A stretch of DNA of 64,000 nucleotides from an uncultured Omnitrophica bacterium (GCA_947085655.1 CAMTXH010000006.1:70498-134497); one strand, 5' to 3'; counted from the first letter of the stretch, positions 12,539 to 54,268 are shown. Made by a program: numbers and translations. Notes: generated by a model from the sequence alone, not told the origin.

Positions 12539-15500
12539 TTAGACCTTGTTGAGGTAATCGACATACGCCTCGAAGTAATCCGGGATGACCGGGACAGGGT
12601 CCACATAAATCTTATGCGTGAGGATGGTGAGGAAGGATTTGATGTCTTCCAGGGCTTTCTGGGGATCAGCCGTGCTGACAAATTCGGCAGCCGTATTCAC
12701 CAAAAGAGGGGCAAGATTCAGATAACGGTCATCCCCACCTTTTCGGGGTTCGAAGACCACGAGACGGATACCGGGATTTGAAATTCTAAGGCGCTTCGCT
12801 CTAAGATATCGCTCCCACGCCTTCATCTGGTCCTCACTCGAGACAATGACCAGATTGGAATTTTCCCCAAGGCGTAGTTTAAGGTTGTCCTGAAGAAGGT
12901 TCACCCAGAGAAACTCTTCAATTTGAAATCGATACTGGAGGGGAGGATCATTCTGGTAACGCGCTGACTCTTTTGCATCACCGTAATTTTCCAGAATGTC
13001 ATAGGTGATGACGGCATAAAACTGGTCGCGCCGGAGATGGAACCTTGCCAAATAATTCTCTACCTCCTGCATGGTCACGGTGGGATCCTCGATTAAAAGG
13101 ACATGTTTGAAAACACTCTCTTCGTTATTGAGGGAGTTTCCGGTCTCCCGCGCAAGACGATCCAAAGCCCAAGAGAAACTCTCCCCCATATCCTCCTTTA
13201 ACAGGGAGGATGGAAAAACAAGAATAAACGCCTCTCCGGTTTCCTTTAATCTTTCGCTCGCTTCGCGCATGGCCGGACTGACAGGACGCCGATGGAGCGG
13301 TTCATACGTGGTAAGCCACTCCGGTGTTTTCGCTACATACCGCTCGGCACCGTCCCGAACCCGAATCGGCTCCGGCTGATAAACAACAAGGGCCCGGTTG
13401 TCTTTCCATTCCCTGTGGCTGGCCACTTCGGTCTCCTCCGACAGCCGGTCATTCCGGCGGCTGAGAATGAGCTTTGCTGGTTCGCCGTGGTCCGCCCATC
13501 CGGCTATCTGTTCGGCAAGCCACCGCCTCTGCCCATTGAGGTCGTATGCGATCCCGTCGTCTCCGGCAAGAACCACGCTCTGATCTCCTAAGGGGAGTTC
13601 TCCTTCCAGAAACCATGCTTCCTCGCGTAAATAGGGTCTTATTTTCCGGTCTCCGTAAGAATTGGTAAATCTCCATGAAGGATCCACCCCCTCTGCCCGT
13701 TCGAAGGCCTGGAGGGTTTCATGATAAATCCCTCCCTTTGAAAGGACAATGTTTCTCCCTTTCTCATCCAATGCAGAGTTCTGCTCGGGAGTGGTCAGCC
13801 GGATTTCCCCCTGATCCGCAATCATGAACCAGGCATCCCCTCTTCCGAATCCGGAGACTTTCCGCTGGTCCCCCTTCTTCCGGATAAAGGCAACGGCGGC
13901 GGTTGCGCCCGATTCCATTTGATCCGTCAGTTTCCGAAGTGCTCGATCCGTCGCCCGATGGACCTCCATCATATTTTCGCCATGTTCCCGAACGGCTGCT
14001 TCAAAAAGAGAGGGGAGTCTTTGCTTAATCAAATGCGCCGCCTGTTCGTCACGATGCCCATCGATCACAGCAATTAAATCTCCTTCAACCTTTCCCACCC
14101 TTACCGGATGAACAAGGACGCGACTCTCCTGCCCCTCCCGTCCCTTGCCGATATCGGCCACATAGCTGATCTTCCCGCCCGAGACGGCATCCGTCACCCC
14201 AAATTCGTGCTCCACATTCCAACTGTATCGCTCACCGTTAAAAAGCCAAAATCCGTTTACAAACCTGTGATTCTCCATCCGCCATCGGCCGTCCAGATTT
14301 TCCTCGAAAAGTTCGATTCCCTTTTGAAGTTGTGCCTCCGTATGAAGTTTGTGCCCGAGTTCCGGATGATGCGTATGTCCCGCTCGGACCATTGCCAGTT
14401 CTTCCTGTGCCTGCTCGAGCGCTTCTTGAATTTTCGCCTCCATCAAAAGGTCCACGTCCAGAGGGTTTTTGGTCGCACTCTTGGTTTTACTGAGAATATG
14501 CCTTAGCACCACCTCCAGTCGAAGGAGAACATCCCCAATAATATCATTTTCAGGGCCGGGACCGACTTTCCGGGTAAAGTGAATCAGACGCTCCCCTGCC
14601 TTAACCCGCTGTGCCACGATACTTCCAAAACCTAGATGGGTCTCTTTTCCGTCCTCTACCTCGAAAACGGTGTTTGTGCCGATAAAGGTCGTCTCAAGAA
14701 TGATTCTCCCGGTGGAATCGGGACGATCCAGGATCACCGTGGAGCCGCCCCCCCAGTTGGGGGCATTCGCCACTGTTTTGGTTTCTCCTTTAACCTTGAA
14801 GGTAATTGGGCGTGCAATGAGGTTCAACGCCCTACTGGCAAGGTGGTGGTTTGTGTAAAGTCCCGAGGCAATGACATTCACATGGAGTGCGCCGATACCC
14901 CGGTTGACCCCCGCCACCGAGTCGTCAAAATGGCTCCTAAAGACTGTTGCGTAGGGCTCAAGGAGATGATCTCTTCCGATATTGCTGAATCTTGAGAGAA
15001 AAAGACTCCCTTCCGTCCGATCCCCGATAAACGAATTTTCAACACGGCCCATCCGCAAGCGGACTTCGTCTCCGAGTTGTGAAACGTTCCTGTCGGTCGA
15101 ATCAATCCACATCCGGACAAGATTCTCTTTCTTTCCGATGGCCGCCTGCTTGATTCGGGAACCCCAGATAAAAGTTTCTTCACCGACTACCGTATCTATC
15201 AGATGGGAGCCGAAAATTTGCGCTCCTTTCCGGATAACCGTCTTTCCTTCCAAAATCACCTCCGGCCCGATGATCGCTTCTTCTTCAATTTCAACCTGAT
15301 CGCCGATAATTGCTGTCGGGTCGATATCGGCAATAGCACCGAATTCCTCAAGAGGATTGACTCTCCTTTCACCCTTCGTCGGCTCAAACGTCCCTGGAAG
15401 ATGCGCCTCCGTTAGGATCGGTTCATAGTCCGGCACCCGGTCCCGCGGGATTTTCGGATCGTTTTCAGGAAGGTCTTTGAAAAGAGTTTGGCGGTAATCC

Positions 15501-21447: not shown

Positions 21448-22959
21448 TTAGAGTCTTCGGAGTGTTTCCCGGAATTTGCGGACTGCCTCAATCGCTTCCT
21501 CCTCGAATCCGGTGGAAAGGACCTCGACCGGAATGGTCCAGGTGAGTCCCTCCTCGATTCTCGCAATCAAGGCACTGTTTAGATGATCAAGGCCGACCTC
21601 CGTATCCTTGACCGGCAAATCAAACGTAAAAGCAACGGAATTCTCTCGCCCTTCAAATAGCCTGGCAACTTCCCTTCTGGCAAAAATCAGGTTTTTCCGT
21701 TCGGGGGAAGGGCCGCCTTTTTCCTCGAGTTTTTGCTGAATGTAGCTCTCAATGCCGGCCACTTCCGATAAACGTTCGGCCGGGACGAACATCCCAAAAT
21801 CCTCCGGTGTCAGGTCCACGGGAAGACCCGTCTTCTTTGAAGCAAACGCGTTCATCTCGTTGAAAAAGTTGCTTGTCTTTTCCGCATCCATGGCTTGAAG
21901 CACCCCCTCACGCGGGGTCAGCGGCAGGAAAGCGGTCACAATCCCGCTTCCGACTTTTCCGAAACGGGGTTCCTGCCGGACGCGTCTCCAGAGGGCTGCC
22001 CATGCATCGAAACTGTAATAGTAATAAGCGGGTTCGGACACCAAGACAACCGGTGCGTTAACCCTTTTCAACTGGTTTAAAATCACACCCGAAAGCGGGC
22101 TGTCCACCGTCGGAAAGAGCTTCGGACCGACATTTTCAAGTGCGGAAAGCCGCGCTTCGGCCTCGATAATTTGCTCTTGAAGAGCAGTCTCTTCTTCGGG
22201 ATGGGTCGCAAAATAATCCGAATTGATGCCGAGGGCTGTTTTGAAATCCCGCCGAAGTCTCTGCGCATCTTTGACCCGGTCGGAAAACGTGCTTCCGGCT
22301 CCTTTTCCATATAAAAGAAAGGGGGCGTCAATGTGACTTAATATTCTAACAGAAGCGGCAAGGTAGTCCGGGAGTTCTTTCTGGCGGGCCAAGAGAGCCC
22401 CTAAAACATCCTCCGGGATGGCTCGCCGCGTATCGACACGGACATGGACACGAATCAAATCGCCTGTTTCGGAACTGGAAATTTTGACTTCAACCGGCTT
22501 CCGGTCCGGAAGGGAACGCTCCCCTAACGCAAAAGTCACTTCGGAACTGGCAGTCTCAGGATGGGAACTCGACACGCGCCCCTCGAATATTCTTTGAAGC
22601 TGTGCCAACGTCAGCGCTTCTCTCTCTTTTAAGAGGCCCTGCCCCATGTACCGTTCCATGATATCCTCATAATCGGCTGAATCAACATGTCTTCTTCGTG
22701 CTTCACCGCTCAAGGGGACATTGGTTTCGCGATACCGTTTCTCCCGGTCATCCCCGAGACGGTTCGCGCCGTCCCGAAGGGAGAGGGCCTGTTCCGCGGC
22801 AATCAAATCATTTTGGAGATTCTGCATGAGGCCGCCGTCCTTCTCCGCCATGGGAGGCCGGTAATGATCCTCAGCCGGGGCACCCCAGGCCGGCATGACG
22901 GCAAAGAAAATTCCCGCGATCAGCATCGAAATCATTTTTTGAAGAAATGAGCGATTCAT
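21448..22959 (-). CDS. secreted protein, paralog of the C-terminal module of the 862-aa protein
   Basis: Signal peptide. Shares AEKDGGLMQNLQ, FGKxGSG, VDLTxEDFG and a ...LRETL C-terminal block with 22981-25569. Confidence 0.8.
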   Translation of the reverse strand: MNRSFLQKMISMLIAGIFFAVMPAWGAPAEDHYRPPMAEKDGGLMQNLQNDLIAAEQALSLRDGANRLGDDREKRYRETNVPLSGEARRRHVDSADYEDIMERYMGQGLLKEREALTLAQLQRIFEGRVSSSHPETASSEVTFALGERSLPDRKPVEVKISSSETGDLIRVHVRVDTRRAIPEDVLGALLARQKELPDYLAASVRILSHIDAPFLLYGKGAGSTFSDRVKDAQRLRRDFKTALGINSDYFATHPEEETALQEQIIEAEARLSALENVGPKLFPTVDSPLSGVILNQLKRVNAPVVLVSEPAYYYYSFDAWAALWRRVRQEPRFGKVGSGIVTAFLPLTPREGVLQAMDAEKTSNFFNEMNAFASKKTGLPVDLTPEDFGMFVPAERLSEVAGIESYIQQKLEEKGGPSPERKNLIFARREVARLFEGRENSVAFTFDLPVKDTEVGLDHLNSALIARIEEGLTWTIPVEVLSTGFEEEAIEAVRKFRETLRRL

Positions 22960-22980: not shown

Positions 22981-25569
22981 TTATAAGTTGATGAGTGTCT
23001 CCCGGAGGGTCCGGAGGGCCGCCTCCGCATCTTCGGAAACAGTCCAGACTTTCGCCTCAATGAAAGTGCTCCGTCCGACCGCGAACGATAAAAGTTCCTC
23101 CAGATTCCGATATCCGACCTGATCCCCGACCTGATTCGATACAAACGGCGACTCAACGGTGAAGGCAACAAAGGAAGGAAGCGACGGAGCGAGTCTCTCG
23201 GCCACCTGCTTTCTGGCAAACATCCGGGTAAGAGGGCGTCCCGCTTCCTCCTGGATATGCCGGCTCGTTGCTTCGTGGTCCGAAAGGAGTGCCGGTGGAA
23301 CCACAACGCCGAAATCCTCAAGTGTCAGGTCCACATTCTTTCCGGTGTATCTTTTGGCAAATGCGCTCAGTATCTCAAGTGCTTTGGAGATCTTCTCCAA
23401 ATCAACACCCCTAAGGGCATCTCCCGGCTGATTAGAAATGGCGTATGGAAGAAGGGCTGAAATGACTCCGCTTCCTTTTTTCCCGAACTCTGGATCCTGC
23501 CTGCGATACCGCCAATAGTCCACGTAAAGGTCCGGATTAAAAGCAAAGTAAGCCAAGTCGTATCCCACAACAATGGGGTTATCCACATTCCTTGCCTGCG
23601 CCAAGACATTCGGTGAAAGGAGGTCGGATGTCAGAAAGATGTTGCGGCCGATCAGAAGATCGTCGCTCAAACGAGTCCCCCCGTCACCCGCTTGACCGGT
23701 CAGGTCGTTCCGTTCGTCTATCAAGTCTCTAATCTTCTGCTGTACCGCCGCAATTTTTGCCCTTTCGGGATCGGCTGCCGGGAGTGCGAGAAGTCTTTGT
23801 TCTTCTCTTCCCAGTTCGCCGATTTCGCGAATGACTTCGTCCAAATAATCCTCGCCTTCATCGTCCTCACGGACCCCCCCGTCGCGGACCGTGACAGCGG
23901 CAATCTCATCCTGAAGATTTTGCATGAGCCCGCCGTCTTTCTCGGCGGTTGGCTGGCGGAGTTGCCCCACGATTAAATGCGATTTTTCCTTCAAAATGGT
24001 GTAATAAAGTTCCGGATTTCCCGCTTCCGTGATTCGGGGCGAAATGACAATATGGGAAATACCCTGCTCTCTCAAAATCTGTGTCAGCCCCGGCGTATGA
24101 AATCCTCCTGTAATCAGGACGGCGAACGTGACTTTCTCCTTTTTCATTTCCCTCATCGAATTTTCAACAAATGCCACATCCCGCGCCTGCGCAATCCGGT
24201 AAAAGCGATCCATCGTCTTGAGATGCTCATCGACGCTGCCGACTTCCTGCGGAATGGCAATCTCCAAACGGTGTTCGTTGATTTTACCCTCCAGATAAGG
24301 GATAAATGTCTTGACGGAAAATCTCAGGCGGTTTTTCTGGTAAAGGGCGAAGTCATCCGGTGAAATTTTGAGCCGGAAAAGGCCCGAAAGAAGCCTCAGG
24401 TGTTTCGAAATGGCGGCGAGCTGCCTTTCGTCTTCGGAAGTAAAGAGTTTTTCCCGAACCGCCTGTTCCAGCCGGTCCCCCTCCTTGAAAAGTTCCGAGT
24501 GCTGGATATCCCCATATAAGGAAAGATAGCGGACATATTTTTCAAGATTCGGGTAATCTTCAAGGGCCACGCTCTTTTCGGAAGCCACATTCGCCACATG
24601 ACCGTAGTATCGTCGCTGGGAAACTTTCCCTTCCTGATAGGCGAGACTCTGACTCACCAATAGATCCAATTCCTCCTGCGTCAGGTCATCCGTCAATGTT
24701 TCGATGAGCCGGTTCCGCTCCTCGTCAACCTGTCCGAAATCAATGGCCTTCTCCAGTCGGTAGGCCTGAAGGAGTCGCTCCACGTTCGGATATCCCTCCG
24801 CCCCGCCGTAAGCGGCCAGGTATTCGTAATAGTCCACGAGTTCCATCTGTTCCGTCTCGTATGCCTCGCGCATCTTCTCAAGGTCGAGATGGGCGGAACT
24901 GTAAATGGTTTTTTTGAGTGTTTCCACCGCTTCCTGGAGGCGGTCGAGCTGGTCTAGTGCCACTTTTTTCAGTCGTTCGACCTCCAGAAAGACCCGGAAA
25001 TTCTCCTCGTAAAGCTCCGCGTCTTCAATCCCCTGCCGGATGATCGGATAATCGCTCACCAGTTCCAGATATTCGTCCCCCGCAATGAGTCCCTTCCGGA
25101 GATACCGTTCTGCCACCTCCGTCCGTGCCTCTTTTGAGCCGAGTTTCCGTAGCGAAGAAAGATCCCCCCGGATATCCCCCCCTTCCACAAGAATTAACTT
25201 CACGTCGTTGTTCCGGATGAGAGACTCCAGAATGGAAGCAAGGTTTTTCTGTGCTTCGTAGTGCACATGGGCATCTTGAATATGGATCAGAGTCTGTTCG
25301 GAGTTTCCTTCGTAGATATCGACGATCCGGCCGTAGGCCTCCGGGATTTGAATCTCACCTAATCCGAGGGAACGCAAAAGAAACGCTTCTTTTTGGGGAG
25401 AGGTTGTCTGAATCGGATCCGGCAGCACAGGTGCCACGACCCGCGCCTGCTGAAAGATGCTTCTCTCAGGCGGATCGGCCCATGCCATGGTTCCGGCACC
25501 GACTACACCGAGCACGATAAGAAGCAAAAGGCTCTTTTCTTTTATTAGCTTCTTCTTTATACCCTTCAC
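22981..25569 (-). CDS. secreted two-module protein (N-module shared with the giant protein, C-module shared with the 503-aa protein)
   Basis: Signal peptide. About 550 aa are collinear with giant-protein residues ~40-590 (IHIQDAHVHYEAQKNLA...ILVEGG...ITGGFHT...ELYYTILKEK). Confidence 0.8.
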   Translation of the reverse strand: MKGIKKKLIKEKSLLLLIVLGVVGAGTMAWADPPERSIFQQARVVAPVLPDPIQTTSPQKEAFLLRSLGLGEIQIPEAYGRIVDIYEGNSEQTLIHIQDAHVHYEAQKNLASILESLIRNNDVKLILVEGGDIRGDLSSLRKLGSKEARTEVAERYLRKGLIAGDEYLELVSDYPIIRQGIEDAELYEENFRVFLEVERLKKVALDQLDRLQEAVETLKKTIYSSAHLDLEKMREAYETEQMELVDYYEYLAAYGGAEGYPNVERLLQAYRLEKAIDFGQVDEERNRLIETLTDDLTQEELDLLVSQSLAYQEGKVSQRRYYGHVANVASEKSVALEDYPNLEKYVRYLSLYGDIQHSELFKEGDRLEQAVREKLFTSEDERQLAAISKHLRLLSGLFRLKISPDDFALYQKNRLRFSVKTFIPYLEGKINEHRLEIAIPQEVGSVDEHLKTMDRFYRIAQARDVAFVENSMREMKKEKVTFAVLITGGFHTPGLTQILREQGISHIVISPRITEAGNPELYYTILKEKSHLIVGQLRQPTAEKDGGLMQNLQDEIAAVTVRDGGVREDDEGEDYLDEVIREIGELGREEQRLLALPAADPERAKIAAVQQKIRDLIDERNDLTGQAGDGGTRLSDDLLIGRNIFLTSDLLSPNVLAQARNVDNPIVVGYDLAYFAFNPDLYVDYWRYRRQDPEFGKKGSGVISALLPYAISNQPGDALRGVDLEKISKALEILSAFAKRYTGKNVDLTLEDFGVVVPPALLSDHEATSRHIQEEAGRPLTRMFARKQVAERLAPSLPSFVAFTVESPFVSNQVGDQVGYRNLEELLSFAVGRSTFIEAKVWTVSEDAEAALRTLRETLINL

Positions 25570-40609: not shown

Positions 40610-42160
40610 TCACCCAGCTTGAAATGACCCTTTTTTCTTGTAATCCTCCCTTAACCTCAAAATTTCCTGCTTCCCGATCAGATAACTGGACGGCTGGGTC
40701 GGCTCCAACAGATACCGTCTCACCTCTCTGATGGCAGAGTCATGCGCCATCGAGACCTCCCGCTTCAAAAATGCCACTCCCTCCCTTGATGTCATCCGGC
40801 CGGTATGGAGTTGCGAATCGAGGATGACGCGGGAGGATCGCCAGAGATGGTTTTTCATGAGGAGAAGATAGGTCTTCGAATCCGGGTCAAATCCCTCTTC
40901 AAGCATCATCTCTTCGCAATAAAAAGCCCATCCTTCTGCCAGCACATCATCATGCGAAAACTTCCGGATGGGGGAGGGGTGGTCATTCTGCCAGGCGAAC
41001 TGAAGGTGGTGCCCCGGATAGGCCTCGTGGATTACCGTCAGCCGAACTTCCTGGATCGAGTGCTCCCGCAGAAGGGCCCGGATTTTTTTCTTGCTTCCAA
41101 AAGGAGGGGTCACATAGAAAATGCCCTGCGGCTTTTTCTCAAGGGGAGCCGGCGGAAGGTAGGCGGCATACGGGATAATCGGCCGATCATAGACGGGTGT
41201 TTCGGTTACAAGGAGATGATCCTTCCTCGGGAATTTGGCGATCTCTTTCTCCCGGATAAAGCGCCTCACCCGGGAAAGGACCTTTTGGTACTCGCCGACA
41301 AGATGTTTCGGGCTTGGAAGATCCAGCCGGCTTTTATAAAGGATGGAGCGCCAGTCCTGATGGGGATCAATGAGCTTGGCAACCATCCGGATTTTTTTCT
41401 TCGACGATTCCAGTTCCTCCCTTCCCATCTCGTAGAGGGTTTTGGAATTGTAGGGCAGAAGATGCGCCTCTTTCAGCATGAAGTCGAAAAGCTCGCGTCC
41501 GATGGCGGCGGATCCCTTTGCCTTTCGAAAAAGTTTTTTCTTAAGAAAGCGGCTGTATTCTCTGAGGGCGAGGAGAGTTTCCCGCTGCGCCTCCAAAAGG
41601 TCTCTCCGAAGGGATGCGGGCAACCCCGAGTCTTTTGGGACAATGTCTTCAAAGAATTCGATGGCGCTTTCGGTGATTTCATGGGCGGTGTGGACGGCGT
41701 CCTTTGAGCAGACTTTCAGATTCCGCTTGGCCTGTTCCAGAAACCGCGGGATCTGCCGCATCCGGAGACTCAGATTCCGAACCCGTTCCTTCCGCGGCGC
41801 AAAGATCCCGACCACAAGGAAATAACAGGCCTCCGTGCAGTACGTGGCGTAAGAGGCGGGGTCCGTCTCCCAGGGCCTCTGGCGTCTCTCAAGTTCCAAT
41901 CCCGCCCAAAGGTCCTGGCAGAGTGATTCATAATCGATCCGCGTTTCAAAATCGAGTCTTTGGGGGTTTATTTTGCTCCGGAAGGCCCGTAAAAAATCGG
42001 CCTCCCCCCTCAGATACTCTTCGATTCCGTCTTTCGAAAAATCACCGAGGAGATCATCATAAAGATGGTATCCGTAATGGGTCGCCTCCATCGGCCGGGC
42101 CCTGAAAAAGAACCGTTTATAATCGGAAAAGAGTTTGTAGAGTTTTTCCTTCTCGGACAT
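40610..42160 (-). CDS. DUF885 family protein (metallopeptidase-like HExxxGHH)
   Basis: HEAYPGHHLQ motif. Size ~516 aa. Confidence 0.65.
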   Translation of the reverse strand: MSEKEKLYKLFSDYKRFFFRARPMEATHYGYHLYDDLLGDFSKDGIEEYLRGEADFLRAFRSKINPQRLDFETRIDYESLCQDLWAGLELERRQRPWETDPASYATYCTEACYFLVVGIFAPRKERVRNLSLRMRQIPRFLEQAKRNLKVCSKDAVHTAHEITESAIEFFEDIVPKDSGLPASLRRDLLEAQRETLLALREYSRFLKKKLFRKAKGSAAIGRELFDFMLKEAHLLPYNSKTLYEMGREELESSKKKIRMVAKLIDPHQDWRSILYKSRLDLPSPKHLVGEYQKVLSRVRRFIREKEIAKFPRKDHLLVTETPVYDRPIIPYAAYLPPAPLEKKPQGIFYVTPPFGSKKKIRALLREHSIQEVRLTVIHEAYPGHHLQFAWQNDHPSPIRKFSHDDVLAEGWAFYCEEMMLEEGFDPDSKTYLLLMKNHLWRSSRVILDSQLHTGRMTSREGVAFLKREVSMAHDSAIREVRRYLLEPTQPSSYLIGKQEILRLREDYKKKGSFQAG

Positions 42161-42221: not shown

Positions 42222-43622
42222 ATGGCCATGAACAAAATCCAAAGGGCCAACTGGGTGCATGAGCTTCTTTTAAAACTTCCCCCCGAAGAGCAACGAAACC
42301 TCCTTCGCCGGGTCCGACAGGTCAGTCACGAGGAGAGAATCCTGTATGAAAAATCGAGGGGAGGGGAGAAGGTGATCGACCTTTTTGTCCGGCCCCGTCT
42401 CCTCTATCCATATCAGTTGGCCTACTGCCGGAGCATCATCCTGGAACTTCAGAAGGCGATCGAGACGATTTACTTCAATTATTTCCATGAACCGATGTTT
42501 CAGGAAATTCTTCCTTTCCACGGCATTGAAAGGGAGCATTTTGTCCGCTTTTATGCCGCCCAGGGCCGCGCCCAAACCGTCATGAGCCGGTGGGATGCCG
42601 TTTCCGATTATAGCGGCGCGAACTGGAAAAGGCACCTTCGGTTTGTCGAATGGAACGGCGTCGGAATCGGCGGGATTTACTATGCGGTTGCGACAGAAGC
42701 AATTATGCGGCGGTCTCTCCTCCCGCTCCTTAAGAAATTGCGTCCCGATCTTCAGATTGTGCGGATGACCGATGCCCGCGAGTTGCTTCTGCGGCAGATC
42801 CTCCGCCATGCCAAAAAGGTGCGTATTTCCTTAAAACGCGTCGCTTTGGTGGAGGAACTCCGTGACCCCGGCGGGCCGCTCGAATTCGAAGAGTTCCGCG
42901 ATTACTTCAAAAAAAGGGGGCTCGATGCGCTCCTTTCGGATGCGCGAGATCTCTCTTTAAGGAAGGGAAAGATTTTTGCGCGCGGAAAAGAGGTCCAGAT
43001 GATTTACCGGGATACGGAGCTTGAAGAAGCCCTTTATATGGAAAAAAAGAAAGAAAACGTCGATGCCTTTAAGGAGGCGTTCCGCCGGAATGCCGCCGTC
43101 TCTTCCTTAATGGGAGAACTTGACCATAAAAGCGCTTTGGAGGTTCTCACCCGGCCCGATCTTGCGGGCACCTTTACCCCGAAGCAGCGCAAAATCTTCC
43201 GCGCCCATGTCACCTGGACAAGGTTGCTTCGCCCCATCAAGACCACCGACCCCTACGGTCGGACGGTCGACCTCTATACGTATGCAAGACGCAAAAAAGA
43301 AACATCGGTGATTAAACCGAACCGGGAATTCGGAGGGGTCGGGGTTATCTTTGGAAGAAAACTTTCACAAAGGGAGTGGGAAAAAGCTTTGGCGAAGGCG
43401 GTCCGCCATCCGGGCACATGGGTGATTCAACATGAGGCCCAAAACCACCCGAAAAAATTTGTCACTTCCCGGAGGGGCAAACTTCAGGAGGAGACGATCA
43501 ATGTCGTCGACGGCCACATCGTCACCCCGGACGGGATCTCCATCATCGGCCGCGGCGCCCGCCATGAGGTTGTCAATGTTGCAAGACAGGGCGGCCTCGT
43601 CGCCACACTCGTGTATCGATAG
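42222..43622 (+). CDS. hypothetical protein, possibly ATP-grasp-like (circularly permuted/GspS-like)
   Basis: 466-aa ORF. Family assignment is tentative. The last 83 bp of the gene are duplicated at 45071-45153. Confidence 0.35.
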   Translation: MAMNKIQRANWVHELLLKLPPEEQRNLLRRVRQVSHEERILYEKSRGGEKVIDLFVRPRLLYPYQLAYCRSIILELQKAIETIYFNYFHEPMFQEILPFHGIEREHFVRFYAAQGRAQTVMSRWDAVSDYSGANWKRHLRFVEWNGVGIGGIYYAVATEAIMRRSLLPLLKKLRPDLQIVRMTDARELLLRQILRHAKKVRISLKRVALVEELRDPGGPLEFEEFRDYFKKRGLDALLSDARDLSLRKGKIFARGKEVQMIYRDTELEEALYMEKKKENVDAFKEAFRRNAAVSSLMGELDHKSALEVLTRPDLAGTFTPKQRKIFRAHVTWTRLLRPIKTTDPYGRTVDLYTYARRKKETSVIKPNREFGGVGVIFGRKLSQREWEKALAKAVRHPGTWVIQHEAQNHPKKFVTSRRGKLQEETINVVDGHIVTPDGISIIGRGARHEVVNVARQGGLVATLVYR

Positions 43623-43846: not shown

Positions 43847-45046
43847 ATGAAGATTCAAAGAATTCTGGCGAAAAAGCTTCTTTTGTCCGTGAAGCGTTTC
43901 CCGGTGGTGACCGTCACCGGACCCCGTCAATCGGGCAAAACCACACTGGTTCGTGGTGAACTCCGGAACTACGCGTATCTCTCATTGGAATCCCCCGACC
44001 ATCGCGCTTTTGCCTTAGAGGACCCCAAAGGATTCCTGAAGCAGTTTAACGGACCTGTCATCCTGGATGAGGTCCAGCGCACGCCGGATCTATTTTCCTA
44101 TATCCAGGTAGCCGTCGATGAGCGAGATCGTCCGGGGCAATTCATCCTGACAGGATCGCATCATTTTCTCCTCTTACAGACGATTTCACAGTCTCTGGCC
44201 GGACGGTGCGCTGTTCTGCATCTACTCCCCTTTTCTTTGGCGGAACTGTTTGGCCGTCAAAGTGCTTCGATGGAAAAACTGGGAAAAAGAGTTTCCTCCC
44301 CTGGCCCTCTTCCCCGTCGATCTCTTGTGGAATATCTTTTCTCCGGATTTTACCCGAGGATTCATGATAAAAGGCTTCCTCCCCGCGACTGGCTGGGGAG
44401 TTACTACCAGACCTATCTGGAGCGGGATGTCCGAAATGTCCTGAAAGTGGGGGATCTTGAGGCATTTAGCCGATTTGTCCATCTTTGCGCCGGACGGAAC
44501 GGGCAGTTGCTGAATCTTGTAGGGCTTGCTTCCGATTGCGGCATCACGCATACCACGGCGAGACGGTGGATTTCCGTCTTGGAAGCAAGTTTCCTGATTG
44601 TGCTCCTTCGGCCCCATCACCGAAATTTCGGAAAGCGGCTTGTCAAAAGCCCGAAGATTTATTTTTTGGACACGGGGCTTCTCTGCTTCTTGCTCGGAAT
44701 CCGATCTCCGCGGGAGCTCCATGCGCATGGCGCGCGCGGCGCCATTTTTGAGAGCCTTGTGTTTTCGGAGTTCTATAAGAATTTCGTCCACCGGGGGGAG
44801 CGGCCTTCCATTTATTTCTGGAGAGATGCTAGGGGACATGAGATCGATTTCCTCATCGACGCAGGCGGGCGTTTGCTACCGGTTGAAGCGAAGTCGGGTC
44901 GGACAGTTTCCGAGAACTTCTTTGATGAAATCGTCTACTGGAGGAGTCTTGCGGGACAGCGGAAAGCGCCGGCTGCTTTGATCTATGGGGGGGATCAGCC
45001 GTTACTGCGTCAAGGGGTAGCGATTCATCCCTGGTTTACGCTGTAA
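43847..45046 (+). CDS. AAA family ATPase with C-terminal DUF4143 (COG1373-type)
   Basis: Walker A (GPRQSGKTT) and Walker B (ILDEVQ). C-terminal region typical of DUF4143 proteins. Confidence 0.75.
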   Translation: MKIQRILAKKLLLSVKRFPVVTVTGPRQSGKTTLVRGELRNYAYLSLESPDHRAFALEDPKGFLKQFNGPVILDEVQRTPDLFSYIQVAVDERDRPGQFILTGSHHFLLLQTISQSLAGRCAVLHLLPFSLAELFGRQSASMEKLGKRVSSPGPLPRRSLVEYLFSGFYPRIHDKRLPPRDWLGSYYQTYLERDVRNVLKVGDLEAFSRFVHLCAGRNGQLLNLVGLASDCGITHTTARRWISVLEASFLIVLLRPHHRNFGKRLVKSPKIYFLDTGLLCFLLGIRSPRELHAHGARGAIFESLVFSEFYKNFVHRGERPSIYFWRDARGHEIDFLIDAGGRLLPVEAKSGRTVSENFFDEIVYWRSLAGQRKAPAALIYGGDQPLLRQGVAIHPWFTL

Positions 45047-45395: not shown

Positions 45396-45938
45396 ATGAT
45401 CAGTCTCCGATCCCAGATGACACAGAAAGTCCTTGGATACCTCATGCTCCATGAGGACTCGGAGCTCTATGTCAACGAAATGGCACGCCGCCTAGAGGTG
45501 GATCCGGGAAACCTCATTCGGAAGCTCAAAGAACTGGAGGAAGAAGGTCTTCTCAAAAGCCGCACAAGAGGAAAAGAACGCTATTATTCTCTCAACACCT
45601 CTTTTGCTCTCTTTAAAGAATACAAAAAGATCATCCTGAAAACAGTGGGTCTGGAACACCTCCTCAAAGAGGCGATCCGGAAGATAAAAGGCATTCAGGC
45701 GGCGTGGCTTTTCGGCTCCTATGCCAGGGATAAGATGGATGCTTCAAGCGATGTTGATCTTCTCCTCGTAGGGACACATGACGCCGTGGATGCCCAAAGG
45801 AAAATCGCTCCAATCCAAAAATCCATTGATCGGGAGATCAACGTCGTGAGCATGAGTCCAAAGGAATACCAAAAAGGCCGGGGAAGCCATTCCCTTCTTA
45901 AATCGATCCGGAAAAGCCGGCACATTCAACTCCTATGA
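45396..45938 (+). CDS. nucleotidyltransferase (MNT-type) with N-terminal winged-HTH
   Basis: GSYARDKMDASSDVDLLLV minimal NTase motif. N-terminal HTH-like segment. Confidence 0.7.
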   Translation: MISLRSQMTQKVLGYLMLHEDSELYVNEMARRLEVDPGNLIRKLKELEEEGLLKSRTRGKERYYSLNTSFALFKEYKKIILKTVGLEHLLKEAIRKIKGIQAAWLFGSYARDKMDASSDVDLLLVGTHDAVDAQRKIAPIQKSIDREINVVSMSPKEYQKGRGSHSLLKSIRKSRHIQLL

Positions 45939-46345
45939 CGTTTGAACAAGGATACTTTCGGGAATTTAAATTTACCAAAGCGCAAATTGCTCAGTATGTT
46001 CGGAATGCCGGTCGCGACCTGCAAATTGCCAAAGAAGATTCCCATCTTGAGGTCCGGTTCACGTATAGTTACCAAGCACTCATCAAAATCGCCATTGCGC
46101 TCGTTGCCAAGGAAGGGTATAGGGTCCGCAGTATTCCGGGGCATCATGTGAAGTTGTTGGCGAAAGCATCCGAACCTTTGAAGGATCCCGATGTCTTGGC
46201 GATCGGAGACGCCATGCGGACAAGGAGAAACGATGACTTCTATGGGGAAGGAATTTTAATTACCGAGAAAGAAGCGACGGATTACCTTGAATTTGTTCGG
46301 CGCATCCTCACCAAAGCCGAACACCTCATCCAAGGTAAGTCCTAA
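45935..46345 (+). CDS. HEPN domain protein (partner of the upstream MNT; type II/VII TA-like pair)
   Basis: 4-bp overlap with the MNT gene. Helical ~136-aa protein with an Rx4-6H-like segment (RSIPGHH). Assignment by context and size. Confidence 0.55.
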   Translation: MTFEQGYFREFKFTKAQIAQYVRNAGRDLQIAKEDSHLEVRFTYSYQALIKIAIALVAKEGYRVRSIPGHHVKLLAKASEPLKDPDVLAIGDAMRTRRNDDFYGEGILITEKEATDYLEFVRRILTKAEHLIQGKS

Positions 46346-46468: not shown

Positions 46469-47596
46469 CTACTCATCGGCGTATTCCGGGTATTCGAAGA
46501 TCTCCCCTTTATAGTTACGAAGGATCACTTTGCCGTCCCCCATGCTGACGATGTAATTGGGCTGGATCGGAATCTTCCCTCCCCCGCCGGGCCCGTCAAT
46601 CACATACGTCGGCACGGCATAGCCGGTCGTATGACCCCGCAGTCCTTCGATGATCTCGACCCCCTTCTGAACCGCAGTCCGGAAATGCGTCGTTCCCTTC
46701 ACCAAGTCACACTGGTAGATGTAGTAGGGACGGACTCGGATCATGAGGAGTTTGTGCATTAATTCTTTCATCACTTCCACAGAGTCGTTGATTCCTCTAA
46801 GGAGCACGCTTTGGCTTCCCAAGGGAATGCCGGCATCGACCATCCGTTCGCAGGCCTCCTTCACTTCCGGCGTAATCTCCTTCGGATGATTCACATGGAC
46901 ACTCATCCAGACCGGATGATACTTCCGGACCATTTCGCAAAATTCCGGCGTGATCCGCTGCGGAAGGGCAAACGGAATCCGGGAGCCGATCCGTAAAAAC
47001 TCGATATGTTTAATCGAGCGGAGTCTCTTCAGCATGTATTCGATTTTTGAGTCGATCAAAAGAAGAGGATCTCCGCCCGATATCAAGACATCCCTGACAA
47101 CCGGCGTTTTCTCAAGATACTCACAGGCCCGGTCGAAATTTTCCTGGACAAAAGGGTTCCGCTTGTCCTCGCCGACGATCCGGCTTCGGGTGCAGTAACG
47201 GCAATAAACCGCACAGCGGTTCGTCACCAAAAGGAGCACCCGGTCCGGATACCGATGGACCAGCCCCGGCACCGGCATGTGGCTGTCCTCCCCGCAGGGG
47301 TCGGTCATCTCAAGGGGCGAAACAATCAGTTCCCCCGCCCTCGGGACAAACTGCCGCCGGATCGGGCAACTCGGATCCTGGGGATCCATCAGGATGGCGG
47401 TATGGGGGGTAATGGCCATGGAGAGTTTATGCTTTGGAAGTTTAAGCCCCTCCTCTTCCTCGGGTGTGAGTGTAATGATCTGTTCCAGCTCTTCCTTGGT
47501 CTTCAGACTGTTCCGGAGTTGCCACTTCCAGTCGTTCCACTCCGCATCCGAAACACCACTCCAAATTCCCCGTGCGGCCTTTACCGCAATCGCCAT
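46469..47596 (-). CDS. kamA: lysine 2,3-aminomutase family radical SAM protein (KamA/EpmB-like)
   Basis: CxxxCxxC (CAVYCRYC). N-terminal W..WQLRN motif. PLP-binding region. Start placed at MAIAVKAARG (the ORF-track start is 55 codons upstream). Confidence 0.8.
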   Translation of the reverse strand: MAIAVKAARGIWSGVSDAEWNDWKWQLRNSLKTKEELEQIITLTPEEEEGLKLPKHKLSMAITPHTAILMDPQDPSCPIRRQFVPRAGELIVSPLEMTDPCGEDSHMPVPGLVHRYPDRVLLLVTNRCAVYCRYCTRSRIVGEDKRNPFVQENFDRACEYLEKTPVVRDVLISGGDPLLLIDSKIEYMLKRLRSIKHIEFLRIGSRIPFALPQRITPEFCEMVRKYHPVWMSVHVNHPKEITPEVKEACERMVDAGIPLGSQSVLLRGINDSVEVMKELMHKLLMIRVRPYYIYQCDLVKGTTHFRTAVQKGVEIIEGLRGHTTGYAVPTYVIDGPGGGGKIPIQPNYIVSMGDGKVILRNYKGEIFEYPEYADE

Positions 47597-47609
47597 GCTC
47601 TGCCCTCCT

Positions 47610-48680
47610 TTAGGATGCCGCCAGTCGATTGGTCTTCTGCCACAACTTCTCCTGCGGCACCGATTTTGCCCTTTTGCGGGCAATGGCACATTCCACAATT
47701 TTTCCGATGACGTCGGCATAAGAGAGTCCGGCGGCCTGCGCCGAACGGATGAAACCCGCATCCGACGAAATGGCAGGATTCGGATTCACTTCAATAATAT
47801 AAGGGGTCTCTCCCCTGGCTCTGAAATCGACCCGGACATAATCCCGGCACCCGAGCGCCGCGGAAGCCCTCAAGGCAAGGGCGTGGAGTCTTTTCTCAAG
47901 CGAAGAAGAAAGGGATGCGGGACAGACCGGCGGCGTTTTTTTATACTCCGGGGAATCCTCCTTCCACTTGGAAGCAAAGGTCAGGATCCGGGGCATGCCG
48001 GGAGGAATGGAGGAAAAATCAATTTCAGAAATCGGAAGGATCTGGGCGTTTTTTCCGTTTCCGAGAATCGCCACATTGAATTCCCGGCCGTCAATATACT
48101 CCTCCGCAATGACCGGCTGGTGGTACTTTACCATCATCTTCATGACCTGTTCGCGGAGGGCCGTTTCGTTTTCCACGACCGAATCCTTCTCCATGCCAAG
48201 ACTCCCATCCTCATGAAGGAGTTTCACGATGAGGGGAAACTGGACATTGGCCGGAAGCGCTTCGAGTCCGGTTTCAAAGACCAGATGAGCCGGCACCGGG
48301 AGGCCATTGGCTGACAAAAACCGCTGGGTCTTTGATTTGTTGAGGGAAAGTCCCAGGGTCAGAGGTCCGGATCCGGTATAAACCACTCCCAAAAGCTCCA
48401 TGAGAGATGCCACATACGCCTCGTACACCCCCTCCCCCTTGATATCCTCGCAGAGGTTGAAGACAATATCCCCCCGGTAAAGGAGGAGTTCCTGGAGAAA
48501 GGTCTCGATGTTCTGATAGACAATTTGTAGGCGGCGGGTCGTGTAGCCGAGCCGGGAGAGGGCCTGCTCCACCTCTTTGGCTTCGGTAAGGATGTCATCC
48601 TGGGAAGAGAGCGACCGATCTTCCGATCCCTCCCCGTATTGACTGTTATCGTAAAGAATGGTGATGGGTTCTCGATACAT
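47610..48680 (-). CDS. D-alanine--D-alanine ligase family ATP-grasp enzyme (Ddl-like) 1
   Basis: ATP-grasp motifs (LIVKLLHEDGSLGM...EEYIDGREF...IIEVNPNP). Confidence 0.7.
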   Translation of the reverse strand: MYREPITILYDNSQYGEGSEDRSLSSQDDILTEAKEVEQALSRLGYTTRRLQIVYQNIETFLQELLLYRGDIVFNLCEDIKGEGVYEAYVASLMELLGVVYTGSGPLTLGLSLNKSKTQRFLSANGLPVPAHLVFETGLEALPANVQFPLIVKLLHEDGSLGMEKDSVVENETALREQVMKMMVKYHQPVIAEEYIDGREFNVAILGNGKNAQILPISEIDFSSIPPGMPRILTFASKWKEDSPEYKKTPPVCPASLSSSLEKRLHALALRASAALGCRDYVRVDFRARGETPYIIEVNPNPAISSDAGFIRSAQAAGLSYADVIGKIVECAIARKRAKSVPQEKLWQKTNRLAAS

Positions 48681-49716
48681 GCTCCACCAGTCCTACCCGC
48701 TTGCAAGCGATTGAAAAAACCTTGAGGATGAGTTCTTCATACGTCATTCCCATGGCGCGGGCCGCCTTTGGAAAACAGGAATTCTGTTCCGGATCCGGAA
48801 GAATCCCGGGAAGGGGATTCACCTCGATGATTTGCGGCTCCCCTTTTGCATCCAGCCGGAGATCTATCCGGCACCAGTCCCGGCATTTCAATGCGAAAAA
48901 GGCCTCCCGGGAGAGCTCCGCCAGACGCTTCTCTAGCTCGGGCGGAATCTTGGCCGGACATTCAAAGATCCGGAGAGGAGAAGAAGGGGTATCCCAGACC
49001 CACTTGGCCTCGTACGAATAAATTGGGTTGGCTTTTTTGGGCAGGGCCTTCAGGTTAATTTCAACGACTGGAAGGACCTCAAGAGAGGGACCATTTCCCA
49101 GAAGGGCAACGGTGAATTCCCTCCCTGGGAGAAACTCCTCCACCAAGGCAGGCTGATGATAGCACTCCAGGATGCGATGGACTTCTTTCCGGAGGGTTTG
49201 GTCATTTTCAGCGACTGAACTGTCCGGAATCCCCTTGCTTGACCCTTCCCAAACGGGCTTCACGATGAGGGGAAACTCAAGACCGTTCCGCTGAAAACTC
49301 GGGCTTTTGAAAACGAGGAAGTCAGGGGTGGGAATCCGGTGCTGCCGCAGGACCCGTTTTGTCCAGGCCTTATCCAGGGTAATGGTGAGGGTTTCGGGAC
49401 TCGATCCGGTATAAGGAATAGAGAGGCGCTCCAAAAGCGCCGGAATTTCCGCCTCCCGCAAGGGACCAAAACGGCCTTCTGCGATGTTAAAAACGATATT
49501 GGGCCGTTCCTGTTTCAGGCGCTGGGCTGCCGATCGGTCCGCCTCAATCAAGACCACTTCGTGATAGCGACAAAGGGGCCTTGCGATTGCCTGAATGGTC
49601 TCGGCTTCATCCCATTCCAGATAGGCGTCTTCCGGGACCCCCTTCCTTCTTCCGTTTCCAGCCGCCCCGAGAGTCCCGACCTCTTTTTTTTCGTTATAGG
49701 TCAGGCCAACCTTCAC
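48646..49716 (-). CDS. D-alanine--D-alanine ligase family ATP-grasp enzyme (Ddl-like) 2
   Basis: Paralog of the preceding gene (LIVKPVWEGSSKGI...EEFLPGREF...IIEVNPLP). Confidence 0.7.
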   Translation of the reverse strand: MKVGLTYNEKKEVGTLGAAGNGRRKGVPEDAYLEWDEAETIQAIARPLCRYHEVVLIEADRSAAQRLKQERPNIVFNIAEGRFGPLREAEIPALLERLSIPYTGSSPETLTITLDKAWTKRVLRQHRIPTPDFLVFKSPSFQRNGLEFPLIVKPVWEGSSKGIPDSSVAENDQTLRKEVHRILECYHQPALVEEFLPGREFTVALLGNGPSLEVLPVVEINLKALPKKANPIYSYEAKWVWDTPSSPLRIFECPAKIPPELEKRLAELSREAFFALKCRDWCRIDLRLDAKGEPQIIEVNPLPGILPDPEQNSCFPKAARAMGMTYEELILKVFSIACKRVGLVEHVSRTHHHSLR

Positions 49717-49737
49717 TGTCGCGTCACATTCTCGCCT

Positions 49738-50088
49738 TTAGGGGTTCCCTCCTAAAAGCGAAACCCGTTCCTTTAGGGTACTCCGCGCAATGGTATCCAC
49801 CAATCGCAGTACCCGAAAGATCCGGTCGTCCGCCACCGCGTAGTAGACGTTTGCCCCCTCCTGCCGGGACACCAGAATGTTGGCATGTTTCAATGCCGCT
49901 AAATGACGCGACACGTTTGATTGTCCAATTCCGATGGCAGAGACAATGTCTCCGACCGCCTTTTCTCCTTCTTTCAAGGATTCTAAAATCTCCAACCGGA
50001 CCGGATGCGCCAGCGCCTTCAGGTAATTTGACTTGAGATTTCGCCGTGCAATCTGGACACGACCCATCCGAATGACTCCTATATACAC
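49738..50088 (-). CDS. ArsR/SmtB family transcriptional regulator
   Basis: HTH_ArsR signature (ALAHPVRLEILESL...VGDIV...GQSNVSRHLAALKHANIL). Confidence 0.8.
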   Translation of the reverse strand: MYIGVIRMGRVQIARRNLKSNYLKALAHPVRLEILESLKEGEKAVGDIVSAIGIGQSNVSRHLAALKHANILVSRQEGANVYYAVADDRIFRVLRLVDTIARSTLKERVSLLGGNP

Positions 50089-50149
50089 ATATCCCTCTTG
50101 TCGCCTATGAAAATATTAGCATATGTCTATTTACTTGTCAAGGGATTTT

Positions 50150-52798: not shown

Positions 52799-54268
52799 GT
52801 GAAGCCGCTCAAACAACTCATCCCGAGCCATGTCTGTCTCTCCTGCCGGGTCTGCTGCCGTTTTGCAGAGCAGAAGAGCACCATGGTCCCGCGTTTCATG
52901 CAGGAGGAAGTGGACCGGCTTTCCCCAAAAGAGCGGACCTTCTTCCAGACCTCCGGGAAGAGTCCCCGCCGTCCCGCCTTGAAACACTATGAAGGGACCT
53001 CCGGTCAAACTTGCGCCTGTCCCTTCTTCAATCCGGTCACACAGGAATGCACCATCTACCCCAACCGTCCTCTGGATTGCCAACTCTACCCTTTTGTGTT
53101 GACCTTCGGGGCAACGCGCAAGCGGATCCTTTTGAGTTTGGATACCCAATGTCCTTTTGTACAGGACGCTGCCAATCAGGAGGCGCTGGCCGGCTACGGC
53201 GATTATGTTCGGGATTATCTTGAGGAAAGATCGCTCGTTTCATCCCTCTCCCTTAATCCCGGTTTGGTCAGTGAAGATGGGCCGAGCTTTCTTCCTTTTT
53301 TTCCCCTTGCCGGGCTTTCGGAAAAAATTTGTCGTGTCACCCTCTATGGGGATCTCTCTCCCCTCCCTCGCGGCTGGAATCCGGTCACTCTCGAGGACCA
53401 CGAGTTTTTGAGGAGGCGTTTCTCCGGTTCGCCGCGCGAATTTTCCGAGGAATCGTTCGTCTCCTCCGTTATTTTTTCAGACCTGATGCATTTCTATTGG
53501 AAGGAAAAAGAAGGGGTCCTTTTTATGGTCGCTCAACAGGGAAACCGTTTTTTCATGTCGGTCCCTCCGCTCGTGCCGAAAAGAACGGATCGTCATCTCC
53601 GGTCCGCTTTCGAAATGCTTTCCGAATTAAATCCGCCGGGGTCTGCGGGCCGGATTGAGGGGCTGACCGAAGAAGAGGCGGCCCTTGCCGCCTCATTCGG
53701 TGCTTGCTGCTATCCGAAGCCGCCGGAGTATCTTTACGAACGGAAGTCCCTTGTAGAGCTCTCCGGAGACCCTTATAAATCGAAGCGTGCGCTTTGCAAC
53801 TATTTTACCGGTCATTATCCGTTTACGCTGGAGCCGTATCAATCTTCGGATTTTCTGGAATGTCTCCAATGTTTCAAACGATGGCAGAATGAAAAACAGA
53901 AAAAGACAGAAGATACCTACGCCCTCGCCTTGCTGGAGGATGCCGCATTTGTGCATCGTCGGGCACTCCTCCATGCGGAGGCACTCGAGCTCGAAGGCAA
54001 AGTCATCCGAATCGCGGGAGAAGTTAAAGGATACACCTTCGGCTACCCCCTCAAGGAGGACACCTGGTGCATCCTTCTTGAAATCGCTGACCCCTCCATC
54101 AAGGGACTGGCGCAATTTCTCTTCAGGGAGTTCTGCCGGGAAAAGAGCGGATTTGAGTGGATCAGTGCGATGGATGATTCGGGGCTTGAAAGTCTCAGGC
54201 AGGTCAAGCGTTCCTATCGCCCCGCACGGATTAAAACTCCTTTTGTGGCTTCCCGGGAAGGCCCCTGA
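52799..54268 (+). CDS. fusion protein: YkgJ/UPF0153 CxxCxxCC metal-binding domain + DUF2156-like (MprF/LysX C-terminal, GNAT-fold) domain
   Basis: N-terminus has CLSCRVCC ... CACPFF ... CTIYPNRPLDCQLYP (UPF0153 pattern). C-terminal ~250 aa resemble DUF2156. The DUF2156 call is tentative. Confidence 0.5.
   Translation: MKPLKQLIPSHVCLSCRVCCRFAEQKSTMVPRFMQEEVDRLSPKERTFFQTSGKSPRRPALKHYEGTSGQTCACPFFNPVTQECTIYPNRPLDCQLYPFVLTFGATRKRILLSLDTQCPFVQDAANQEALAGYGDYVRDYLEERSLVSSLSLNPGLVSEDGPSFLPFFPLAGLSEKICRVTLYGDLSPLPRGWNPVTLEDHEFLRRRFSGSPREFSEESFVSSVIFSDLMHFYWKEKEGVLFMVAQQGNRFFMSVPPLVPKRTDRHLRSAFEMLSELNPPGSAGRIEGLTEEEAALAASFGACCYPKPPEYLYERKSLVELSGDPYKSKRALCNYFTGHYPFTLEPYQSSDFLECLQCFKRWQNEKQKKTEDTYALALLEDAAFVHRRALLHAEALELEGKVIRIAGEVKGYTFGYPLKEDTWCILLEIADPSIKGLAQFLFREFCREKSGFEWISAMDDSGLESLRQVKRSYRPARIKTPFVASREGP

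Follow-up and report, generated by a model that had tools for sequence, protein, structure and literature searches.

In Pelobacter, the genes ablA and ablB (Pcar_1401/1402) have been interpreted as encoding osmolyte synthesis, with N-epsilon-acetyl-beta-lysine as the inferred product (PMC3543383). In the N-acetylglutaminylglutamine amide (NAGGN) pathway, Ngg performs both N-acetylation and peptide-bond formation to generate an osmolyte, and the operon is under the control of an adjacent winged-helix repressor (PMC8070244). Among KamA-family aminomutases, the YjeK/EpmB clade is distinct from the clade of lysine 2,3-aminomutase (LAM) and AblA, and Syntrophus and Desulfuromonas have one enzyme of each (PMC2821294). 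Here, we describe a locus at positions 46469-50088 of a 64-kb stretch of DNA from an uncultured Omnitrophica bacterium (the whole stretch is referred to as the window), in which kamA, encoding a LAM-type aminomutase, stands beside graspA and graspB, encoding two ATP-grasp ligases with the fold of D-alanine--D-alanine ligase (Ddl), and a gene for an ArsR-family regulator. The four genes form one operon, which represents in Omnitrophota a biosynthetic module that is widely conserved and as yet uncharacterised. On balance, we think that this module makes a small beta-lysine-containing amide or peptide through KamA and the two ligases, with a likely compatible-solute or polyamine-like role in the cytoplasm.

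An earlier note on this DNA had described a kamA-family gene, two ligases of ~356 amino acids (aa) whose coding regions overlap by 35 nt, and an ArsR regulator. An open reading frame (ORF) listing of the window confirmed four ORFs at this position, and the ORF listing and family matches, which greatly exceed chance, agree with the described genes and with the overlap, which is exactly 35 nt. The gene order given in that note, with the aminomutase first and ArsR last, has to be reversed, as all four ORFs lie on the minus strand and transcription runs from arsR through graspA and graspB to kamA, the last gene. The features are as follows:

50113..50141, minus strand: sigma-70-like promoter (TTGACA, 17 nt, TG-TAATAT), upstream of arsR
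49738..50067, minus strand: arsR, ArsR/SmtB-family winged-helix regulator, 109 aa (maximal ORF to 50088)
48646..49716, minus strand: graspA, Ddl-fold ATP-grasp amide ligase, 356 aa, GTG start
47610..48680, minus strand: graspB, second Ddl-fold ATP-grasp amide ligase, 356 aa
46469..47596, minus strand: kamA, lysine 2,3-aminomutase (radical S-adenosylmethionine (SAM) and pyridoxal phosphate (PLP)), 375 aa (maximal ORF 46469..47761)

The intergenic gaps are 21 nt between arsR and graspA and 13 nt between graspB and kamA. For kamA, the start at 47596 is preferred because a 152-nt overlap with graspB then vanishes and the N-termini of homologues agree, and inspection of the sequence places AGGAG before the arsR ATG at 50067. 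Identical DNA is present in a public Candidatus Omnitrophota contig from a metagenome-assembled genome (MAG; GCA_964374045.1), where the gene calls use the same starts, arsR at 50067 and kamA at 47596. The promoter, which likely starts the four-gene transcript, is a consensus match only, with 10/12 consensus positions and an extended -10 element; 8 such sites were observed in the scanned region and 2.4 were expected from shuffles.

The aminomutase KamA proved to be of the KamA/AblA type rather than EpmB, scoring 514 bits (E 2.6e-154) against TIGR03820 (lysine 2,3-aminomutase, AblA) and 245 bits against the EpmB model TIGR03821 (cut-off 369). It also passes the KamA-family model TIGR00238 (365 bits, cut-off 199) and falls under the cut-offs of the models for glutamate 2,3-aminomutase (TIGR04368; 438 bits, cut-off 650) and arginine 2,3-aminomutase (TIGR04468; 427 bits, cut-off 600). 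The TIGR03820 score lies below the equivalog cut-off of 525.4 by a margin that corresponds to the absence of the C-terminal ~55 model positions from KamA: the match stops at model position 361 of 417, and, relative to the clostridial enzyme, the protein is ~45 residues shorter at its C-terminus. Among solved structures, KamA matches only the C. subterminale LAM (PDB 2a5h; E 1.7e-148, residues 8-367), to which it is ~58% identical over trimmed alignment columns. Its CAVYCRYC motif (CxxxCxxC) aligns with Cys125, Cys129 and Cys132 of 2a5h, and Arg134, Asp293, Asp330 and the PLP lysine Lys337 are all kept. On the published LAM structure, we take Asp293 and Asp330 to hold the epsilon-ammonium group of lysine and Lys337 to bind PLP. 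These three residues are present in every full-length module-linked KamA, the exceptions being gaps in truncated sequences, and Arg134 is present in 65/65 module-linked sequences. As the narrow cut-off miss matches the missing C-terminal tail, the prediction that KamA forms beta-lysine is well supported.

Two other assignments of KamA were rejected. Identity as a glutamate 2,3-aminomutase fails on the TIGR04368 score and on the retention of both Asp293 and Asp330, which Ruzicka and Frey reportedly noted in 2007 to be replaced (by Lys and Asn) in that enzyme. A distinct Omnitrophota KamA clade was also considered; the window KamA does group with clostridial LAM, but all module KamAs are 53-58% identical to LAM, so that the distinction is weak.

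The association of KamA with the two ligases is conserved far beyond the window. We fetched 80 genome loci with graspA alone as bait and scored their neighbours by tblastn, and the following counts rest on the 50 in which graspA has a flank of no less than 1.5 kb on its upstream side and 3 kb on its downstream side:

Second ligase beside graspA: 48/50 loci
KamA near graspA: 46/50 loci
Second ligase and KamA both: 44/50 loci
GNAT-family acetyltransferase of ~155 aa between graspB and kamA: 37/50 loci

The third count bears out the triad of aminomutase and two ligases whose conservation the earlier note had proposed to check. The module is found in more than 10 phyla. Its bacterial carriers include Omnitrophota, Kryptonia, Ignavibacteria, Aminicenantes/Acidobacteriota, Gemmatimonadota, Holophagales, Victivallales, Caldithrix and Desulfuromonadales, and its archaeal carriers Bathyarchaeia, Nezhaarchaeota, Methanomethylicota and Nitrososphaerota. 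Two gene orders occur, graspA-graspB-GNAT-kamA in bacteria and GNAT-kamA-graspA with a divergent graspB in archaea. As the linkage survives rearrangement across two domains of life, a shared pathway is strongly supported. In openly accessible full text, to which our search extended, we found no paper on a module of aminomutase and ATP-grasp ligases, and the three papers that mention both terms are unrelated.

The GNAT is a frequent partner in this module, and the partner GNATs of related loci match generic GNAT models only (RimI best, at 40 bits), with no match to an AblB model. A natural fusion from a Logan assembly (P0197, 507 aa) joins a GraspB-type ligase to a C-terminal GNAT, and its ligase part has the Omnitrophota-like motifs EDGS and NPNPC; this fusion links the acetyltransferase to the ligases. 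The Omnitrophota version, represented by the window and loci L005 and L006, has no GNAT and an ArsR gene instead, and no GNAT of either module type was detected anywhere in the 64-kb window. In Desulfuromonadales, we also observed that the module is flanked by a protein of ~580 aa, in which an unassigned ~260-aa N-terminal part precedes a C-terminal histone-deacetylase (HDAC)/acetylpolyamine-amidohydrolase domain:

HDAC-domain protein: L004 11657-13402; L085 10636-12372; L088 4925-6673; L148 3903-5630

This protein could strip the acetyl group that the GNAT puts on.

Both ligases belong to the Ddl fold, which raises the question of whether they are Ddl enzymes. The Dala_Dala_lig_C domain is matched at E 1e-36 by GraspA and 1e-29 by GraspB, and AlphaFold2 models of the two (pLDDT 89.6 and 91.7, respectively) have Ddl enzymes as their top PDB fold neighbours, with TM-scores of 0.73-0.86 (normalised to the target) and identities of 19-29% (24-29% for GraspA). 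Sequence and fold searches of the PDB returned only Ddl structures and no closer characterised ligase. Both proteins nevertheless miss all of the curated cut-offs for Ddl, among them those of the models NF002378 (186.4 bits for GraspA and 148.2 for GraspB, cut-off 243) and TIGR01205 (151 and 129, cut-off 245.65). The paralogues are 41% identical to each other, and GraspA is the more conserved, at ~50% identity from bacteria to archaea. In public annotation, their homologues are named 'D-alanine--D-alanine ligase' or 'ATP-grasp domain-containing protein'.

Active site residues were compared in an alignment of E. coli DdlB with 82 homologues of GraspA and 67 of GraspB; residues 63-305 of the DdlB reference sequence were verified against a separate alignment. 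The residues for nucleotide binding, Mg binding and catalysis, Lys97, Lys144, Glu187, Lys215, Arg255, Asp257, Glu270 and Asn272 (DdlB numbering), are retained in both families. GraspA also retains Glu180, and GraspB has Glu or Gln at this position. Given this retention, both ligases should be active. The substrate site is altered: His63 is replaced by Glu in all homologues of both paralogues, and Tyr216 by Trp with a single exception. Glu15, Ser150, Tyr210 and Ser281 are unchanged in GraspA, which has Cys in place of Leu282 and, in 65/82 homologues, Lys at the Met285 position. The pocket of GraspB is more diverged than that of GraspA, with Ser150 changed to Ala or Gly, Ser281 to Ala and Leu282 to Gly. 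At the Gly276 position, 65/67 GraspB homologues have Asp, the exceptions being both from Omnitrophota (Ala in the window, Cys in L006), and the His280 position is mostly polar or acidic (Asp, Asn, Glu). The Omnitrophota GraspB also reads EDGS rather than EDAS.

These data bear on the alternative in which ordinary cell-wall Ddl paralogues lie by chance beside an aminomutase of lysine fermentation or osmolyte synthesis. The best matches of both ligases are indeed Ddl families and structures, and the window holds the murein genes murJ and an L,D-transpeptidase gene. Against this stand the scores under the Ddl cut-offs, the replacement of His63 and Tyr216 in both ligases, the further loss of Ser150, Ser281 and Leu282 in GraspB, and the linkage to KamA and a second ligase through rearrangement. 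The pair is also present in archaea that have no murein, and the lysine-fermentation genes kamDE, kdd and kce are not adjacent in any annotated locus. We therefore regard a chance neighbourhood as scarcely credible. The view that the ligases are not ordinary cell-wall Ddl enzymes is upheld by the sub-cut-off scores, by the altered D-Ala-site residues and by their occurrence in Bathyarchaeia, Nezhaarchaeota and Nitrososphaerota.

Together, the gene content suggests the following pathway. KamA would turn L-lysine into (3S)-beta-lysine. GraspA and GraspB would each activate a carboxylate as an acyl phosphate and couple it to an amine, a chemistry taken from the family, with the substrates inferred. 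The two ligases would thereby build a small amide or peptide containing beta-lysine, for example a peptide of two or three residues or an amino-acyl unit with the basic amine as its cap, and probably form two amide bonds within one small product. In most lineages, the small GNAT would then acetylate this product. The Omnitrophota version, having no GNAT, an altered GraspB pocket and presumably control by a repressor of the ArsR family that has no metal site and is encoded by the first gene, may make a variant that is not acetylated or differs in some other way, which would agree with the GraspB changes. By analogy, the product would resemble N-epsilon-acetyl-beta-lysine and N-acetylglutaminylglutamine amide in kind. 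The ion-homeostasis genes MgtE, MgtC, MscS and TrkAH adjoin the module in several loci. The earlier note had offered a compatible solute or a cell-wall-modifying metabolite as the product, and the second option is disfavored because of the archaeal distribution, which takes in lineages without murein.

The earlier note had further set the module apart from modification of translation factors, and we considered the possibility that an ATP-grasp ligase places beta-lysine on a protein, either EF-P in a manner independent of EpmA or another carrier or ribosomal protein. KamA paralogues do supply beta-lysine for EF-P (PMC2821294), and a deoxyhypusine synthase (DHS) homologue is an alternative neighbour of the ligases in other clades. 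In one locus, L088, efp and a true epmA (346 bits, cut-off 287) lie 6 kb upstream of the module, and a second KamA paralogue of 347 aa, 57% identical to the module KamA, lies beside and convergent with it (EF-P-related and second-KamA regions at 1-1091 and 11159-12202). L088 thus has an EpmA of its own and does not need the module for EF-P. In the 64-kb window, tblastn with E. coli EF-P and the bona fide L088 EpmA found neither efp nor epmA, in agreement with the absence stated in the earlier note, and across 171 loci tblastn placed EF-P near the module only in L088 and aIF5A near none. In addition, EF-P is absent from the archaea that carry the module, both ligases resemble Ddl and not RimK or LysX, and the EF-P system of Geobacter is a separate efp-genX-yjeK cluster, GSU1752-1754 (PMC5585712). 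EF-P modification was rejected as a general explanation on the basis of the single EF-P locus among 171 and its absence from the window, and protein modification in any form is, in our estimate, very improbable.

The synthesis of a small beta-lysine amide is challenged by a second, unexpected genomic context of the ligases. In ~30 metagenome loci together with L087, L089, L091, L173 and L174, the ligase pair directly follows a pyruvoyl-dependent arginine decarboxylase (PvlArgDC; ADC below):

ADC-type loci (metagenome/MAG): L087, L089, L091-L111, L173, L174 and others

The ligases of this clade (~335 and ~354 aa) are 55-57% identical to the window GraspA, and the clade is nested inside the KamA-linked tree. 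In some of these loci, two GNAT genes with a methyltransferase gene between them follow. A route to homospermidine that depends on agmatine and was described recently consists of DHS-like SpeY, SpeB and ADC (PMC13625781).

Several observations weigh against a product tied to beta-lysine. The ADC-type loci often have DHS-like and agmatinase genes alongside and have no kamA nearby, and four Gemmatimonadales loci contain the pair and a GNAT with no adjacent kamA. A search for positions separating the KamA-linked from the ADC-linked ligases, at a conservation threshold of 85%, yielded 0 in GraspA and 1 in GraspB. Beta-lysine may accordingly be just one among several amines that the ligases accept, or they may not use it. 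As the window contains no GNAT, its product may also differ from that of the majority module, and the osmolyte role is a weak hint, drawn from analogy and a few neighbouring transport genes. Of the earlier proposal of a product containing beta-lysine or another beta-amino acid, the lysine-type KamA and the conserved triad stand, but, as the same ligase pair occurs in ADC/polyamine operons, specificity of the ligases for beta-lysine may be lacking. Our confidence in a strictly beta-lysine product is moderate, mainly because of the ADC-linked clade. In light of the small number of separating positions, a residue-based specificity signal between the two groups was dropped.

Two readings fit the ADC context: either the ligases take a generic basic primary amine, or kamA lies elsewhere in those genomes, of which the comparison covered the loci. 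Under the first, the pair would attach an amino-acyl or dipeptidyl unit, usually N-acetylated, to whichever basic primary amine its neighbours supply, beta-lysine here and an agmatine- or homospermidine-type amine in the ADC operons, so that the product class would be a peptidyl-amine and beta-lysine an interchangeable building block. The ligases may accept a generic basic amine because the ADC-linked pair shows no change in conserved residues, and the nested position of the ADC clade, the direct succession of PvlArgDC and the ligase pair, and the known homospermidine route point the same way. The acidic residue of GraspB at the Gly276 position, together with the polar or acidic residue at His280, could hold a cationic amine. 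Conversely, genomes of the ADC type may carry kamA elsewhere, adjacency to polyamine genes could be mere co-regulation, and the ADC clade may be a single lineage. Moreover, Ser281 of GraspA and the Lys at the Met285 position should bind a carboxylate, and agmatine has none. The ADC-type neighbourhoods suggest interchangeable amine-supplying modules, but we judge generic capping of this kind to be unlikely as the full account, and retain a beta-lysine-containing product as our preferred reading for the KamA-linked module.

The pairing of two ligases, found in 48 of the 50 loci, could also reflect synthesis of a polymer, in which one ligase initiates or branches and the other elongates a beta-lysine oligomer or polymer, for example a cyanophycin-like storage polymer or a streptothricin-like epsilon-linked chain. 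Iterative ATP-grasp enzymes such as RimK and the G domain of cyanophycin synthetase do exist, and the HDAC-type amidohydrolase and GNAT beside the Desulfuromonadales module could cap and uncap chain ends. Both ligases are nevertheless nearest to Ddl, a single-turnover dipeptide ligase, and not to RimK or cyanophycin synthetase, and there is no conserved primer protein, exporter or depolymerase adjacent to the module. We consider iteration to a polymer quite improbable, and a small beta-lysine amide or peptide remains the product that we favor.

The regulation of the module differs among lineages. The window ArsR protein matches NF033788 (HTH_metalloreg) at 83.6 bits (cut-off 55) and HTH_5 (PF01022) at E 4e-14. 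As read from the translation, it contains no cysteine and no alpha-3 CxC motif, and its three histidines are not in the alpha-5 arrangement. A metal effector is unlikely given the absence of cysteine and of an alpha-5 His/Asp/Glu site, and a small molecule or other signal is the more plausible effector. Beyond the window, an ArsR regulator lies upstream of graspA only in the Omnitrophota loci L005 and L006. The regulator that the earlier note placed with the ligases is thus present, but it is specific to Omnitrophota and takes the place that a GNAT has in most versions of the module.

In seven loci of the Desulfuromonadales type, a sigma-70-like promoter and a structured leader of ~100 nt are conserved upstream of graspA:

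Conserved leader, outside the window: L004 7850-7946; L085 6862-6954; L088 6848-6947; L148 5843-5948; L138 2403-2502; L141 5849-5950; L137 339-438

The outer stem of this leader shows compensatory changes in 5/7 pairs, and the elements AAAAGCGACCCCUUUUU and GCCGCCAGGC are nearly fully conserved. A further element, CCCCUUUU, is exactly complementary to AAAAGGGG, the ribosome-binding site downstream, with a terminator-like hairpin separating the two. The leader belongs to no Rfam family, a permissive scan having yielded chance matches only, and is a candidate for a new riboswitch or leader. A covariance model of the leader (R1), run over the window and 166 loci, recovered only its seven training sequences, and the motif is therefore lineage-specific and absent from the window. 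Likewise, an Rfam scan found no known cis-regulatory RNA near the operon in the window or in ten related loci. Taking these contexts together, we tentatively raise a broader proposal, that graspA and graspB are a widespread new route to small peptidyl-amines, in which two dedicated, Ddl-derived ligases would join a non-proteinogenic basic unit, namely beta-lysine from KamA or, in one clade, agmatine or another polyamine from ADC. Such products would usually be N-acetylated and would occur in Omnitrophota, Desulfuromonadales, Acidobacteriota/Aminicenantes, Ignavibacteria, Gemmatimonadota, Victivallales and several archaeal phyla, with a riboswitch-like leader sensing the product or a precursor in Desulfuromonadales.

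The rest of the window is ordinary chromosome, with uvrC, murJ, holA, comEC, leuS, accA, mnmE, purH and pabB. Immediately past the end of kamA, the opposite strand carries genes for a nucleotidyltransferase with an HTH domain (45396-45938, plus strand) and a HEPN protein (45935-46345, plus strand), likely an MNT/HEPN toxin-antitoxin pair. The next ORF (43847-45046, plus strand) is AAA ATPase-like by eye and has no NCBIfam match. Together, these genes interrupt synteny with the other Omnitrophota locus. Further along, a 466-aa protein (42222-43622, plus strand) matches the circularly permuted ATP-grasp type 2 family only weakly, below the threshold, and may be another amide ligase; its gene diverges from that of a DUF885 protein (40610-42160, minus strand). 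Upstream of arsR by 2.7 kb and outside the conserved module, an ORF at 52799-54268 (plus strand) encodes a protein with a weak CxxCxxCC motif and, at its C-terminus, an LPG_synthase_C domain, which is the aminoacyl-transferase fold found in lysyl-phosphatidylglycerol synthases. More distantly, a giant ORF of 2968 aa (12539-21445, minus strand) has as its sole Pfam match a PIG-L de-N-acetylase domain at residues 815-955, and beside it on the same strand are ORFs of 503 aa (21448-22959) and 862 aa (22981-25569), neither with a Pfam match. Two tRNA genes (11853-11925 and 12289-12372, plus strand) are the sole Rfam matches in the window.

Identifying the product of this module would be informative in several respects. 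The module is encoded by many uncultured anaerobic and soil lineages and by archaea, and the identity of its product would add a class of metabolite relevant to osmotic and ionic adaptation in sediments and groundwater. It would also reveal a re-purposing of the Ddl scaffold and probably mend a large systematic mis-annotation, as thousands of module ligases are labelled 'D-alanine--D-alanine ligase'. The question is directly testable in cultured carriers, namely Desulfuromusa kysingii and probably Pelobacter.

All parts of the module come from known families, and its logic resembles that of known solute pathways. It shares with the AblA/AblB system of methanogens and Pelobacter a LAM/AblA-type supply of beta-lysine and, in most versions, an adjacent GNAT; an osmolyte role is plausible. 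It differs in having two extra ATP-grasp ligases and a partner GNAT of ~155 aa without an AblB model match, and the window is without any GNAT of the module type. With the Ngg/AsnO pathway to NAGGN in Sinorhizobium and Pseudomonas, the module would share, by analogy, the combination of ribosome-independent N-acetylation with an ATP-dependent peptide bond to give a small charge-masked dipeptide osmolyte. The acetyltransferase-ligase fusion of that pathway is paralleled by P0197, and the adjacent winged-helix repressor is also alike, whereas the module instead uses two Ddl-like ligases, has no AsnO-type amidotransferase and relies on a radical SAM mutase to supply a beta-amino acid.

Compared with DdlA, DdlB and VanA, the module ligases have the same fold, a similar size and the same residues for ATP, Mg and acyl-phosphate catalysis. 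They diverge from these enzymes in identity (19-29%), in their sub-cut-off scores, in the changed D-Ala site and in insertions at the N-terminus and in the omega-loop region; they are paired with a paralogue and KamA/GNAT rather than with mur genes, and they occur in murein-free archaea. The EpmB (YjeK)/EpmA/EF-P system similarly couples a KamA-family source of beta-lysine to amide-bond formation, but the aminomutase of the module is LAM-type, its ligases are ATP-grasp enzymes and not paralogues of aminoacyl-tRNA synthetases, and the window has no efp or epmA. Finally, peptides with basic end groups are made by stand-alone ligases in the blasticidin S pathway (an arginine 2,3-aminomutase and a ligase) and in those of leupeptin and E-64, the last using an ATP-grasp enzyme, an amide-bond synthetase and agmatine. 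There too, an enzyme that modifies an amino acid, either a mutase or a decarboxylase, provides the non-proteinogenic basic unit, and discrete ATP-dependent ligases couple it to other acids. Those pathways are narrow secondary-metabolite clusters, whereas the present module spans more than 10 phyla and two domains at ~50% identity, a distribution that suggests a housekeeping or physiological product.

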